This document shows, piece by piece, positions 47,513-51,943 of a stretch of 64,000 nt of DNA. Location of the stretch: contig CAWCMR010000008.1 in the NCBI GenBank assembly GCA_963796685.1, positions 224,001-288,000 on the forward strand, given 5' to 3'. The position numbers and the translations under genes were made by a program. Positions within the stretch are counted from its first letter, which is position 1. Each line of letters begins with the position of its first letter. The notes under the pieces are model-generated. The model did no database searches. It was given only the letters and a program-made list of their open reading frames with translations, and was not told the origin of the DNA. Origin of the DNA: an uncultured delta proteobacterium (GTDB lineage Bacteria > Myxococcota_A > Polyangia > Fen-1088).

Positions 47513-47565
47513 GGCCATAAACTGCAATCCATGATACAAGGGATCTCTCGCAATTGGAGGCTTTG

Positions 47566-48591
47566 ATGCGTGCATGGGTTCGACCGTTCGCTGTATCGTC
47601 TTTGCTCTTGGCCGGCGTGCTGGCGCCATGCGCGGCGCACGCACAAGCCGACCCGAATCAGCCAAACCAAGCCCAGCCCGGCGATCAACAGCCCCAACCA
47701 CCCCAGCAGCCTGAGCCTCAGCCTGGTTACCAGCAGCCCCAGCCACAACCTGGTTACCAGCAGCCGCAACAGCAGCCTGGCTACCAGCAGTATCCGCAGC
47801 CGCAGCCTGGCTACCAGCAGCCCCAGGGATATCCCTATCAACAGCAGGGGTATCCGCAGCAGGGCTATCAGCAACCACAACCCGGCTATCAGCAGCCGTA
47901 CCCGCAGCAAGGCTACCAGCAGCCGCCTGGCTATCCTCCGGCCCAGGGATACGCCCCGCAAGGCAACCCACCGCCGCCCGGCTACTACGCGCCCGCGCCT
48001 CGGCCCGCCTACGGCCCCCCACCCGGCTACGGCCCACCCCCGAGCTACGCGCCCCCGCCCGTCGAGCCGGCCTTTCGCCGTGGTTTTCTCTGGATGCCGT
48101 ACATCGGTGTCAACGTGCCGGTGGGCGACACCTCGAAGGGTGTTTCGACCGGTCTGCGCCTGGGTGGGCTTTTCGGTTTCAACGCCAGTCCTTTCCTGTC
48201 GCTCAACGGCGAGCTGACGATCGACGTCCTCAACCTCGACAGCTCGATGGGAACGAGCGCATCGGGGGCGGAAGTGGATTTTGCCTTCAGTCCGCTATTC
48301 CACATCGACCTCCCGGCCCTCGAGCTCGTCGTGGGGCCCAAGCTCGGGTTCTTCGCGATGTCCGCAACCTTCAGCGAAAGCGGATACCCGGACACGACGC
48401 TGAGCGGGAGCGGGCTTGCCTACGGATTCAACGCAGGTGTCTTCATCCCCCTCGGCCACATCGCCATCGGCGGTCTTTTCAATTTCACGGGTCGCAGCTA
48501 CTTCAGCTCCTGTCTGAACGATGTCTGCGGCGACGCATCCGGCGGCTCGGACGACAAGTTCTTCGGCTTCTCCGGCGCCCTGATGTACTGA
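47566..48591 (+). CDS. Exported protein with a Gln/Pro/Tyr-rich repeat region and a C-terminal outer-membrane beta-barrel-like domain
   Basis: GGAGG RBS, signal peptide ending AHA, PGYQQP repeats, alternating beta strands and a terminal aromatic residue (GFSGALMY). Confidence 0.75.
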
Positions 48592-48758: not shown

Positions 48759-49202
48759 GCCATGGTGCAGTCGCAGTTTACGGACTGCACTGCGAGGTCC
48801 ACCGTGCGAGGTGGGCGGATCGACCTGAGCTATCTCGCCGATATCGTTGTCGAACCCGAAAAAACGGCGCATGCGCCGCACGCGCAGTTGCCGCCTCACC
48901 GTCCGCACGGCGATGGTGGCCAGCCAACCCTTGATCGCCCCCGGCTGGCGCAGCCGCCCAATGCCACGCGCGGCCTCCACGAACACGTCTTGCACGAGAT
49001 CGTCGACCTCGTGGCTGCGGCCATCGAGCCGCAAGACCACCGCCGCCACATACCGGCAGTAGCGACGATAGACCTCGTCGAGAGACGAGCCCTGCTCCTC
49101 GGAATCGACGAGTCTCAGGACGACTTCGCTGGAACGTTCGGGCTTGGCCAATGTAGACTCTGAGTGTGCCACAACGGGAAAGCGGCTCACCCACTTCGCC
49201 AT
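48747..49202 (-). pseudogene. Truncated ECF sigma factor (region 2 only)
   Basis: LDEVYRRYCRYVAAVVLRL...VDDLVQDVFVEA..IKGWLATIAVR; region 4 is absent and the stop codon lies inside the MITE end. Confidence 0.75.
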
Positions 49203-49239
49203 TTTCCCCGAAACGCGCGGCACGCAGAGGCACGTTTCC

Positions 49240-50827
49240 ATGAAGACAGGCAATTCTCTCAGGGACCTTCTCTTGACCGCGCCGCTGGCCATGGCGATCT
49301 TGTCGATCGCGTGTGCCGGACCAAGCGGCGGCAGCGGCGGCAGCGGAGACGGGGGATCGAGCGGCGGCGGCAACTCGGGCACAGGCGGCGGATCGAGCCA
49401 GGGAGGCTCATCGGGCTCAGGCGGCACCGCCAGCTCGGGCGGAACGAGCACCTCGGGTGGCTCATCCGGCTCGGGCGGCACAAGCTCGAGTGGCGGCTCC
49501 AGCGCTCCCGATGCTTCCATTTCCTCGGGTGGTACCTCGGGTTCGGGCGGCAACGCCGGCGCCGGCGGTGCGTCCAATGCCGGAGGTTCGCACTCTGGTG
49601 GTGCGGGTGGCGGCGGAGGAGGTGCCTCGGGTGGTGCATCAGGTGGGGCGTCAGGTGGAATGACAGGCAGCGGTGGCACCACGACAACCGGCGGAACGTC
49701 CGGTCCTCCCCCCGTGAGCTACCAGCTTCCGCCGCCTGATCGATGTCACGACCAGGACTTCATCCCGTATGACTACAACGCCAAGACGGGCTGCAAAGAC
49801 GGTGACGCCACCAGCGACTGTGGCGGGAAATGCACGGTCGCCAACGCTGTGCACCGATCCCCCCGGCAGCAAGAACGGCGACTACACCTTCATGTGCCAA
49901 CGCAACCAGCTCTTCAGCCCCGAGATGGAGCAAGCCGCGATCGACGACGGCAACACCGGCTTCCACTACGCCGTGGTCGGACACGACGTGGGCGATCCAG
50001 GGGGAATCGACGGCACCGCCCAGAGCGCCTGCTGCCAGTGCTACCAGTTGGTCTACGCCTACCCCAGCCCCAGCAACGACAGGCAGGCGCAGCTCAATCC
50101 CGACAATCCCAATCCCCCGGCCTCGGGCGTGCAAGTTCCACCGCCCATCATCGCGCAGGCCTTCAACACCGGCGCCACGCCGACGACGTTCGACGTGTAC
50201 ATGCCGGCCGGTGGGCTCGGTGCCAACAACGCCTGCGCCCAGGTCGCCGGGGCCAAGTCGCAGTCGGGTCTCTACATGTACACCAGCTACCCCGCCGATG
50301 GTCAGCCGAGCCAGGGCGGCGTGAAGCCGGCAAGTCTCTATTCCGAGTGCAAGACCGCCGTGAATTGGGTGACCACCGCGACCATCAGCTCGTCGGCCTG
50401 CCAACAAAAGACCGCCGACGCGTGCGACAAGATCGCCTCGGACATCCCGGGCCTGACCCAGCAAGCGCAGAGCGGTTGCATCAAATCCAACAGCATCGAC
50501 ACGCTTTACCACCTCAACTGGTCGGTGTACGTGGCCAAAGTCGAGTGCCCCGAGAACCTCACGCGCGTCACCGGCTGCAAGCTGGCGCCGCAAGGCTTGC
50601 CCGCCGTGAAGAAGGACGTGACCACCGCGGCCCAGGCCGCCAAGGATCCGGACTTCCGGACCAAGACCGGCGGCGGCAGCAACCCGTACGAAACCACCAC
50701 GATGGAGGACTGCTGCCGTCCTTCCTGCTCCTCCATCACCTGGACCCAGCAAAAGGGGCTGACGACGGATCCCGAATACCGGGCTTTCTACCTGTGCGAT
50801 GCCAAGGGCGTGCCCTACACGCAGTAG
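49240..50827 (+). CDS. Lipoprotein with a Gly/Ser linker and a circularly permuted GH45-like domain, frameshift at about 49845
   Basis: Lipobox SIAC; ACCQCYQL, AQAFNTG, TFDVYMPAGGLG..C, VECPENLTRVTGC, followed by TTTMEDCCRPSCS. Confidence 0.7.
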
Positions 50828-50977
50828 CTCAGTTCGTCTTGGTCAGGAGGTCCAACCTGCACATCGGACCCAACGAACTCGACAGGTGCCCCGATGTGAT
50901 CTTTGATACTCGACGGCCCCAACGCCAGCATCCACGTCGGTGTGGATGCTGTAAACTGTTCATCAGGAGACATCGAG

Positions 50978-51943
50978 ATGTTCATCAAGTACCTGCCCAT
51001 GGCGATCGCCCTTGGGGCAATCGGATGCAGCAACGACAATTCGCAGTCCGTGGGCGGGGGCACCAGCGGAAACAATGGCAACGGTGGTGGTGGCGGGGTC
51101 ATCATCCCCATCAGCGGCACGGGGAGCGGCGGCAGCGGCGGCGGAACGGGAGTCTCCGTCGATCCGGCTGGGGAGCTCACCATCGTGGTCCGCGACTTCA
51201 AGTTCTGGGACGCGAACGATCCCCAGCACACGAACCCCGACTTCGAAAACGTGCCAGCCACGGATGGCAGCGGCAACCCCGTTCCCGCCAATACCTACTG
51301 GGGAGATTGGGACGACCGGGACATCGTCACGAACACGCTCGGCTCGGATTTCAAGCCGGTGTACAGCAGCGCATCGGGCACCACCCTTACCACCCACGGC
51401 AAAGCAGCTTTCGACCAGTGGTTCAATACCGTCGATGGGACCAACATCATGAAAGAGATCCCGATGACACTCACCAAGCAGGCCGACGGAACATTCCAGT
51501 ACTGGAGCGAGACCGCTGGCCCACCCCTCAGCCCGAACGGCGGGTTCTTTCCCATCGACGACGGAACGCCGTACGCGACCCCGTTCGGGAACCAGGGTGA
51601 GGATGGCAACGGCGTGAGTCACAACTTCTCGTTCACGGTCGAGATCCACACCGTGTTCACCTACACCGGCGGCGAAAAATTCACCTTCAAGGGCGACGAC
51701 GACGTGTTCGTGTATATCAACAATAGGCTCGTCATCAATCGCGGTGGCATCCATGGGGCGGAAGAGCAAACCGCAGAGCTGGACTCACTCAAGGTGTTCG
51801 GTACCGGGGAGACCATCACGCTCACCAAGGGCAACACCTATCCGCTCGACTTTTTCTACGCCGAGCGCCATGTGGTCGCGTCCGACCTCAAGATCACCAC
51901 CGCGCTTGGCCTCACCACCAACACGGACATTCCGATCTTCTGA
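50978..51943 (+). CDS. Fibro-slime domain lipoprotein
   Basis: AGGAG RBS, lipobox AIGC, VRDF..NPDFE, FDQWF, FFPID, HNFSFTVEIHT..GDDDVFVYIN..GGIH..FYAERH. Confidence 0.9.
   Translation: MFIKYLPMAIALGAIGCSNDNSQSVGGGTSGNNGNGGGGGVIIPISGTGSGGSGGGTGVSVDPAGELTIVVRDFKFWDANDPQHTNPDFENVPATDGSGNPVPANTYWGDWDDRDIVTNTLGSDFKPVYSSASGTTLTTHGKAAFDQWFNTVDGTNIMKEIPMTLTKQADGTFQYWSETAGPPLSPNGGFFPIDDGTPYATPFGNQGEDGNGVSHNFSFTVEIHTVFTYTGGEKFTFKGDDDVFVYINNRLVINRGGIHGAEEQTAELDSLKVFGTGETITLTKGNTYPLDFFYAERHVVASDLKITTALGLTTNTDIPIF

Follow-up and report, generated by a model that had tools for sequence, protein, structure and literature searches.

A probable surface-tethered, circularly permuted relative of GH45 endoglucanases encoded by an uncultured member of the Polyangia

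The window, by which we mean the whole 64,000-nucleotide stretch of DNA analysed here (contig CAWCMR010000008.1 of assembly GCA_963796685.1, positions 224,001 to 288,000), carries on its forward strand, at 49240-50827, a gene whose product is related to the endoglucanases of glycoside hydrolase (GH) family 45 with the segments of the domain in rotated order. The gene product is very probably a natural circular permutant of GH45, and the locus as a whole probably encodes, judging from sequence comparison and structural models, a surface-tethered, naturally circularly permuted relative of the GH45 subfamily-A endo-beta-1,4-glucanases. A natural permutant had already been proposed in the initial annotation of the gene, and it is now supported by profile matches, by two confident AlphaFold models that leave complementary pieces of the canonical domain unmatched, by the co-variation of disulfide-forming cysteines and by the motif order across the family.

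Rotated segments of a GH45 domain

Searches with Pfam and NCBIfam on the open reading frame (ORF) and on the N-terminal part of the gene returned no family at E ≤ 1, and phmmer with the ORF against PDB sequences returned a single match, the springtail GH45 enzyme 5h4u_A (E 0.053), whose matching stretches lie out of order (query 307-321 on chain 22-36, 25-100 on 56-115, and 127-207 on 121-200). The comparison was then made with a profile of 71 diverse family members (alignment A1), the first row of which is P0002, a natural fragment whose 370 residues coincide exactly with the mature domain of a homologue of 96% identity. A search of all PDB sequences with this profile gave 10 matches at E ≤ 10, every one of them a GH45 endoglucanase, from 1oa7 (3.2e-19) to 5h4u (1.7e-16). 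Nine of the 10 sequences matched in three rotated stretches (profile 108-187 on chain 69-137, 279-305 on 178-204, and 334-371 on 6-37, the last mapping being seen for 1oa7, 1l8f and 5glx), and 5h4u matched in two. The last stretch pairs TTMeDCCkPsCaw…fysCd with TRYWDCCKPSCGW…VYSCD, which puts Asp10 on the family Asp, Tyr8 on Met and Trp9 on Glu or Gln.

The same order was found across the family. Among the stored relatives that have the DCC motif (A) plus at least two of the other three motifs, DCC comes last in 158 of 158 (B-C-D-A in 134, B-C-A in 17, C-D-A in 6 and B-D-A in 1) and first in none. When a hidden Markov model (HMM) of the trimmed family was compared with 12 canonical GH45 domains from the window's own and related genomes, the DCC stretch stood first in all 12 canonical domains and late in the HMM. 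With the canonical domains doubled, the core of the first copy followed by the DCC stretch of the second was collinear with the family HMM; HMMER left the two as separate envelopes in this test, from which only the collinear order can be read.

Structure prediction, which the initial annotation had suggested, gave confident models whose only strong structural matches are to GH45 subfamily A. The AlphaFold2 model of P0002 (from A1) has a predicted local distance difference test score (pLDDT) of 96.0 and a predicted template modelling score (pTM) of 0.94, with the C-terminal blocks at pLDDT 84-97; the model of the window's own 325 residues from 49850 (from A2, a 75-row alignment) has pLDDT 93.7 and pTM 0.93, with strand 279-285 of the relocated segment at 87-94. 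Foldseek of the P0002 model against the PDB placed GH45 subfamily A in all top ten positions (E 2e-4 to 1.1e-3; template modelling (TM) scores 0.28-0.32 and 0.46-0.52), the next match having an E of 2.1. In a Foldseek-independent pass over 48,161 PDB representatives, Z ≥ 5 was reached by two chains only, both of GH45 subfamily A (Z 12.7 and 12.3; root-mean-square deviation (rmsd) 3.1-3.2 Å over 175-176 aligned residues), and the other eight matches, at Z 2.1-3.5, were GH45 subfamilies B and C, cerato-platanins, the expansin-like Phl p 1, MltA, a putative transglycosylase and a barwin-like protein, which we take to be double-psi beta-barrel proteins. The GH45-like fold of the models themselves is presumably the one known as a six-stranded double-psi beta-barrel with a helical lobe.

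The structural alignments also locate the cut. With VIA-align, residues 6-301 of the P0002 model lie on residues 27-214 of 5glx (Z 12.7, rmsd 3.1 Å, 175 residues, 23% identity). In the alignment of the window model to Humicola endoglucanase V, residue 1 (a Cys) is matched with residue 47, and residue 253 with residue 210 (4eng: Z 11.6, rmsd 2.8 Å, 161 aligned), and over 4eng and 3eng together residues 1 to 253-256 lie on 47 to 210-213 (Z 11.5-11.6, rmsd 2.8-2.9 Å, 161-164 aligned). What this sequential alignment leaves unmatched, canonical residues 1-46 and the last ~70 residues of the model, are the pieces that the profile search pairs. Each segment of the parent domain is present once, in rotated order: canonical 47-213 as window core 1-256, and canonical 6-37 as the C-terminal 38 residues.

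The five motifs that had been recognized in the initial annotation are all recovered by translation in frame 2, at the positions and in the order listed below. That annotation had also read 49240-50827 as a single gene with a lipid anchor attached through a Gly/Ser linker. The motifs and the domain stand, as do a putative lipoprotein-type signal (Cys25) and a 133-residue linker; the single continuous frame does not, since frame 1 runs to 49848 and frame 2 from 49850, and this previously unnoticed break separates both the signal and the linker from the domain. The features of the gene are as follows.

49240-49314, + strand, frame 1: putative signal peptide, lipobox-like at its end (…AILSIA-C), with the codon of Cys25 at 49312-49314
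49315-49713, + strand, frame 1: Gly/Ser-rich linker, 133 residues (G 59, S 36, A 12, T 12)
49714-49848, + strand, frame 1: family-specific N-terminal extension of the domain, 45 residues (VSYQLPPPDRC…TVANA)
49848-49849, + strand, frame 1 to frame 2: surplus base (GCT-G-TGC)
49850-50617, + strand: core, canonical GH45 residues 47 to ~213, from the window-model alignment and the profile stretches
50027-50050, + strand, frame 2: ACCQCYQL
50153-50173, + strand, frame 2: AQAFNTG
50186-50215, + strand, frame 2: TFDVYMPAGG, acid Asp codon at 50192-50194
50540-50578, + strand, frame 2: VECPENLTRVTGC
50618-50689, + strand: connector of about 24 residues that bridges the former C- and N-termini and contains a single short helix; it fills the gap between the structural alignment and the last profile stretch
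50690-50827, + strand: relocated N-terminal GH45 segment (canonical ~5-40), ETTTMEDCCRPSC…FYLCD, profile 334-371 on chain 6-37
50693-50728, + strand, frame 2: TTTMEDCCRPSC, base Asp codon at 50708-50710

The ATG at 49240 starts frame 1, which translates as MKTGNSLRDLLLTAPLAMAILSIAC with Cys25 included and reads, after the linker, VSYQLPPPDRCHDQDF…GGKCTVANA, the last base being 49848. The frame 2 ORF spans 49769-50827 (352 codons, stop codon 50825-50827), and in it the domain continues from 49850 as CTDPPGSKNGDYTFMC…, for a domain length of ~370 residues when the frame 1 extension is included. CCQCY (50030-50044), QAFNTG and the catalytic-acid motif TFD all lie in the core, and the helix of the connector corresponds to residues 260-265 of the window model. 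The end of the signal, ...PLAMAILSIA-C25, fits the PROSITE-type lipobox rule, by which Cys25 would be a lipoprotein-type site; a hydrophobic stretch ending in Cys also occurs in homologues P0003, P0005, P0037 and P0050 and in a paralog of the same genome (L002).

Cysteine pairs were scored in A1 by co-presence and co-loss, in P0002 numbering, with canonical equivalents taken from the profile-PDB alignment (C61≡C57 and the 237-255 pair were assigned by inference instead). The pairs, with the numbers of members having both, neither or only one (discordant), are as follows.

174-333: both 68, neither 3, discordant 0; canonical 136-13
61-361: both 57, neither 4, discordant 0; canonical 57-33
106-338: both 63, neither 5, discordant 2; canonical 87-18
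107-288: both 43, neither 25, discordant 2; canonical 88-200
109-278: both 67, neither 2, discordant 1; canonical 90-190
237-255: both 69, neither 2, discordant 0; canonical 156-168

Together, these six pairs are the six disulfides given for TtCel45A in an excerpt of PMC10573353. The relocated segment, which holds the first strand and the base Asp, brings three half-cystines, and three of the pairs (174-333, 61-361 and 106-338) tie it to the core, one of them joining the Cys that adjoins the base Asp to the Cys after the acid loop. As supporting evidence and not as proof, this argues that the relocated segment occupies the position of the canonical N-terminus. Pairs 11-36 and 27-40 suggest two extra disulfides in the family-specific N-terminal extension. 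P0002 has 20 Cys in all, so that its domain could form at most ten disulfides. A further pair, Cys46-Cys334 (53/2/3), would presumably match the seventh bond of Humicola insolens endoglucanase V (HiEGV), 12-47.

That there is no true permutation at all, the C-terminal DCC segment having arisen independently or being the remnant of a second, degraded GH45 domain lying outside the barrel, is a most improbable alternative. It can draw on the weak score of the C-terminal stretch taken alone (i-Evalue 0.13-0.15), but none of the 158 relatives has an N-terminal DCC motif, canonical residues 1-46 have no other counterpart in the structural alignment, the three cysteines of the segment co-vary with the canonical partner cysteines of the core, and the segment is modelled at pLDDT 87-97.

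The protein would be exported by the Sec pathway and lipidated at Cys25, so that the domain would be displayed on a flexible tether of ~130 residues. The C-terminal strand would re-insert as the first strand of the double-psi beta-barrel, pinned there by the canonical GH45 disulfides, the Asp of ..MEDCC.. would face the Asp of ..TFD.. across the substrate groove, and cleavage of beta-1,4-glucan chains would follow the inverting acid/base mechanism known from endoglucanase V. The likeliest origin of the arrangement would be that a GH45 domain was duplicated in tandem and both outer ends were then lost, which would put the new termini near residues 40-46, in a loop of the canonical enzyme.

Catalytic residues, likely substrate and competing functions

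In HiEGV, according to excerpts of PMC5829257 and PMC6509783, Asp121 acts as the proton donor and Asp10 as the base of an inverting mechanism, Tyr8, Asp114 and Ala74 also being important. Both Asp residues had been described as kept, and this extends to the family: the acid Asp (FD motif, the Asp121 equivalent, aligned to the FD of the PDB chains) is present in 68 of the 71 A1 members and the base Asp (DCC motif, aligned to D10 of TRYWDCC) in 70, with codons 50192-50194 and 50708-50710 in the window. The replacement of YW by ME was likewise correctly noted, the Y-W of canonical TRYWDCC being M-E in the window protein; at the Trp9 position, family members have Glu (33 of 71) or Gln (30). The acid/base pair is thus kept, with the surroundings of the -1 subsite rebuilt. 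Specificity may be altered, as the initial annotation had suggested.

The substrate was approached through the domains to which the permuted domain is fused. Relatives longer than 648 residues (n = 8) carry PF00553 (CBM_2) in five cases, PF00942 (CBM_3) in two and PF11842 in one. P0139 (1087 aa) has two CBM_3 modules and fn3 repeats ahead of the permuted domain, P0130 (793 aa) combines it with CBM_2 and Big_7, and in P0257 a CBM_1 follows it. As CBM_2, CBM_3 and CBM_1 are cellulose-binding modules, the substrate is most likely to be cellulose or another, related beta-1,4-glucan, and hydrolysis of beta-1,4-glucans by the permuted family appears likely. The PF11842 beside the permuted domain of P0269 (753 aa, 76% identical) may reflect a gene-call fusion with a neighbouring gene.

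Several observations weigh against an assignment as a permuted, tethered endoglucanase. The Foldseek scores are modest (E 2e-4, TM 0.32/0.51), as is expected of a sequential aligner applied to a permutant with insertions. The co-losses of cysteines are few and come from related sequences, and we infer the seat of the C-terminal DCC strand in the groove, as well as the geometry of the two Asp residues, from this co-variation and from pLDDT. The position of Tyr8, the residue next to the base whose importance is described in an excerpt of PMC6509783, is occupied by Met in 69 of the 71 members and by Tyr in none. The residue preceding FD is variable (Asn 23, Thr 13, Ser 11, Gln 9 and others), with no conserved His, and no counterpart of Asp114 was found: the loop is shorter, the aligned column is variable and of Gly/Thr type, and the near-invariant columns between N151 and D160 include no conserved Asp. 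At the level of the gene, DNA alignment with the orthologues in loci L012, L013 and L015 shows a single extra base in the window at 49848/49849, which puts this copy out of frame. The neighbourhood lends no support to a function. When 14 related loci were searched by tblastn for proteins encoded near the gene in the window, up to 1.5 kb on either side of the permuted gene, none of five was found; the sixth query, an ORF for a sigma factor of the extracytoplasmic function (ECF) type, matched in L012 only, over its first 62 residues, a match that blastn places in the shared 5' region 49066-49240.

Part of this evidence could point to a permuted GH45 fold with another substrate or another chemistry, for instance that of a lytic transglycosylase, of an enzyme with fungal or prey cell walls as its substrate, or of a xyloglucanase or mannanase. 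The host bacteria are related to predatory myxobacteria (Polyangiaceae names occur among the relatives), Met stands for Tyr8 in 69 of 71 members with no Asp114 counterpart, and the double-psi proteins MltA and the putative transglycosylase match at Z 2.2-2.3. In beetle GH45 enzymes, moreover, substitutions of Asp114 or Asp121 correlate with xyloglucanase activity (PMC6509783, in excerpt). We nevertheless consider such a function unlikely: the fusions are to the cellulose-binding CBM_2, CBM_3 and CBM_1, both Asp residues of the inverting pair are kept, and the MltA-like matches lie ten Z units below GH45 subfamily A. Less likely still, indeed very improbable, is a non-hydrolytic wall-loosening or binding protein resembling expansins or loosenins. 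Expansins, loosenins and GH45 subfamilies B and C share with the permuted family a double-psi beta-barrel with an FD acid motif, Phl p 1, cerato-platanins and barwin appear among the structural matches (Z 2.1-2.4), the residues of the -1 subsite are altered, and GH45 and expansins have a common fold according to an excerpt of PMC5829257. The same excerpt describes expansins and GH45 subfamily C as lacking the Asp10 base, unlike the permuted family, which keeps it in 70 of 71 members; expansins, loosenins and GH45 subfamilies B and C match the permuted models at just Z 2.3-4.0, and the nearest structures by a wide margin are the catalytic subfamily A enzymes.

The one-base frame break

The intact homologues P0003 (529 aa) and P0005 (507 aa), 94-96% identical, read without interruption across the break site as ...GGKCTVANACTDPPGSK... 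(…TVANACTDPPG…). Against L012, the orthologue from the same genus, the gap at 49848 is the sole length difference that is not a multiple of 3, every length difference in the linker included. The site does not lie in a homopolymer run, and beyond 49848 frame 1 encodes Arg-rich nonsense, yet stays open to 51600. A programmed frameshift was ruled out by the orthologues that lack the extra base. None of the contigs from three soil-metagenome runs of one study, which are short, spans 49770-49980, and the window copy would be either a recent pseudogene or a product of sequencing or assembly error.

If the surplus base is real, the gene would be dead in its source organism, where only the signal peptide, the linker and an out-of-frame tail would be made; this would concern the window copy and not the family. 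We regard this as a serious prospect, if one somewhat below an even chance. It is favoured by the extra base relative to three orthologues, by the lone gap of its kind against L012 and by the position outside any homopolymer run; the large neighbouring genes are open, which speaks against an assembly full of indels, and the same genome holds both an intact paralog and a canonical GH45. On the other side, the domain 3' of the break retains 94-96% protein identity to intact homologues and is free of stops in a frame of 352 codons, a pattern that fits a very recent event or an assembly error, and the genome assembly is of draft quality (26 contigs, completeness 88.6%, contamination 6.5%).

Known GH45 enzymes, distribution and gene neighbourhood

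The closest known systems are the GH45 subfamily A enzymes (HiEGV, 2ENG/4ENG; Thielavia terrestris Cel45A, 5GLX; Melanocarpus albomyces, 1OA7/1L8F; Neurospora crassa, 6MVI), with which the permuted family has the fold in common (Z 11-12.7) at 22-26% identity over 156-177 aligned residues. Both groups have the two catalytic Asp residues and the motifs CC.CY, VQ..NTG, FD....GG.G and V.CP..L...TGC, and each of the six TtCel45A disulfides is matched by a co-varying Cys pair in the permuted family. Unlike subfamily A, the permuted family has canonical ~5-40 after ~213, a 45-residue N-terminal extension, a longer helical insert, Met for Tyr8, Glu or Gln for Trp9 and no counterpart of Asp114 or His119, and the window protein has no PF02015 match at E ≤ 1.

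A canonical GH45 is encoded in the same genome (G000:C5:320683-321321, ORF L003:715-2151). It begins ..ASRYWDCCKPSCGW.., aligns collinearly with PF02015 over model positions 2-212 of 214 (E 1.3e-40 to 5.1e-41), matches the permuted-family profile with a full E of 2.8e-14, and consists of a signal peptide, a Gly/Ser/Thr linker, a small Cys-rich module and the catalytic domain. PF02015, in turn, matched neither the window ORF (E ≤ 1) nor P0002 and the paralog (both E ≤ 0.01), and a six-frame search of the genome with it did not match the window locus. In another permuted subclade it matches partially, from model ~37-47 to 147-174 (n = 24, 20 of them over the 27-bit cut-off), and all 24 partial matches lie inside places found with P0002, that is, in permuted genes. 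The expectation that standard HMMs would score the arrangement only partially was therefore borne out for that subclade, the window protein itself scoring nothing. The nearest ESM-Atlas clusters are named 'GH45 domain-containing' (score 0.93), and the GH45 kinship is partly visible to automatic annotation.

Natural circular permutants are known in other GH families, namely the GH16 lichenase of Fibrobacter succinogenes and the GH70 glucansucrases relative to GH13. These represent the same kind of event, with rotated segments and with fold and catalytic residues kept, in different folds (beta-jelly roll and TIM barrel). The initial annotation had not been aware of any description of the arrangement, and in the library of papers searched none was found of circular permutation in GH45 or in any double-psi beta-barrel glycosidase; two surveys of myxobacterial carbohydrate-active enzymes (CAZymes) mention GH45 only in lists. 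The family may be viewed as a natural experiment in protein topology, in which a double-psi beta-barrel glycosidase appears to fold with its catalytic-base strand at the other end of the chain and the original disulfides holding. The new termini would offer an alternative geometry for attaching tethers and binding modules, which may interest enzyme engineers.

Relatives of the ORF number 572 at E ≤ 0.001 among 90%-identity clusters of 193-616 residues, and an exhaustive search of 50%-identity representatives gave 144 clusters at E ≤ 0.001, 91 at ≤ 1e-10 and 40 at ≤ 1e-30. Among the 120 relatives listed, none has a precomputed Pfam domain and the only name is 'hypothetical protein', four coming from metagenome-assembled genomes labelled Polyangiaceae; distant members, by cluster look-up, are named only 'hypothetical protein' or 'chitodextrinase'. 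Hundreds of soil-bacterial proteins that are labelled 'hypothetical' or partly caught by the GH45 model are likely cellulases, in which case CAZyme surveys would underestimate the capacity of Polyangiaceae-type myxobacteria to degrade cellulose.

The permuted protein occurs in 52 of 89 genomes of the window's order, in one family and 6 of 19 genera, and in 4 of 401 genomes sampled across the phylum, the window genome G000 included. Two paralogous copies are the usual state of the order-level genomes that have it. In the window's own genus, canonical GH45 is present in 12 of 12 genomes and the permuted protein in 11 of 12, both coexisting in most. The second copy of the window genome (C5:408546-409580; L002:1498-2982, minus strand, 494 aa) is intact, 50% identical, and also has a Cys-ended signal and a Gly/Ser/Ala linker. 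In another family of the phylum, two adjacent, divergently oriented permuted copies lie at G114:C59:14231-16472 (L008/L010), each 45% identical to P0002.

Some members are Lys/Asn-rich or carry a fungal-type CBM_1 (P0253, P0254, P0247 and the CBM_1-bearing P0257) and in these, too, the DCC-type motif closes the order (…TMMDCCKPSC, …TTTMEDCSLPTC). They differ in composition from GC-rich myxobacteria, which suggests eukaryotic microbes as hosts. It is conceivable, though we hold this tentatively, that the permuted proteins form a functionally distinct, unnamed GH45 subfamily (at least 144 clusters at 50% and 572 at 90% identity) whose rebuilt -1 subsite (Met for Tyr8, no Asp114) would make its substrates or products differ from those of endoglucanase V, and whose occurrence in eukaryotic microbes as well would imply inter-domain transfer.

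DNA homology to the same-genus locus L012 covers 49066-50839, that is, the gene with 174 bases upstream and 12 downstream, and both flanks are unrelated, so that the gene lies in different neighbourhoods in close relatives; in nine other orthologous loci, DNA homology is limited to the domain. Scans of 48800-51100 found no RNA family (Rfam, E ≤ 1), no promoter-like site and, as terminators, two minus-strand terminator-like sites inside the gene, no more than in shuffled sequences. Upstream, 47554-48591 (+) encodes a secreted-looking protein of 345 residues with Gln/Pro/Tyr-rich repeats (PGYQQPQ…) and a Gly/Ser/Phe-rich C-terminal half, which matched no Pfam family at E ≤ 0.001. The ECF-type sigma ORF mentioned above, at 48747-~49060 (-), is short, has Sigma70_r2 only (7.6e-14) with an odd C-terminal tail and without region 4, and may be truncated or frameshifted. 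Downstream, a gene that was not adjacent to the permuted gene in the 14 related loci encodes, at 50903-51943 (+), a fibro-slime/PA14 protein (TIGR02148 1.1e-29, PA14 7.4e-09) whose probable lipoprotein start (…AIALGAIGC) lies further in.

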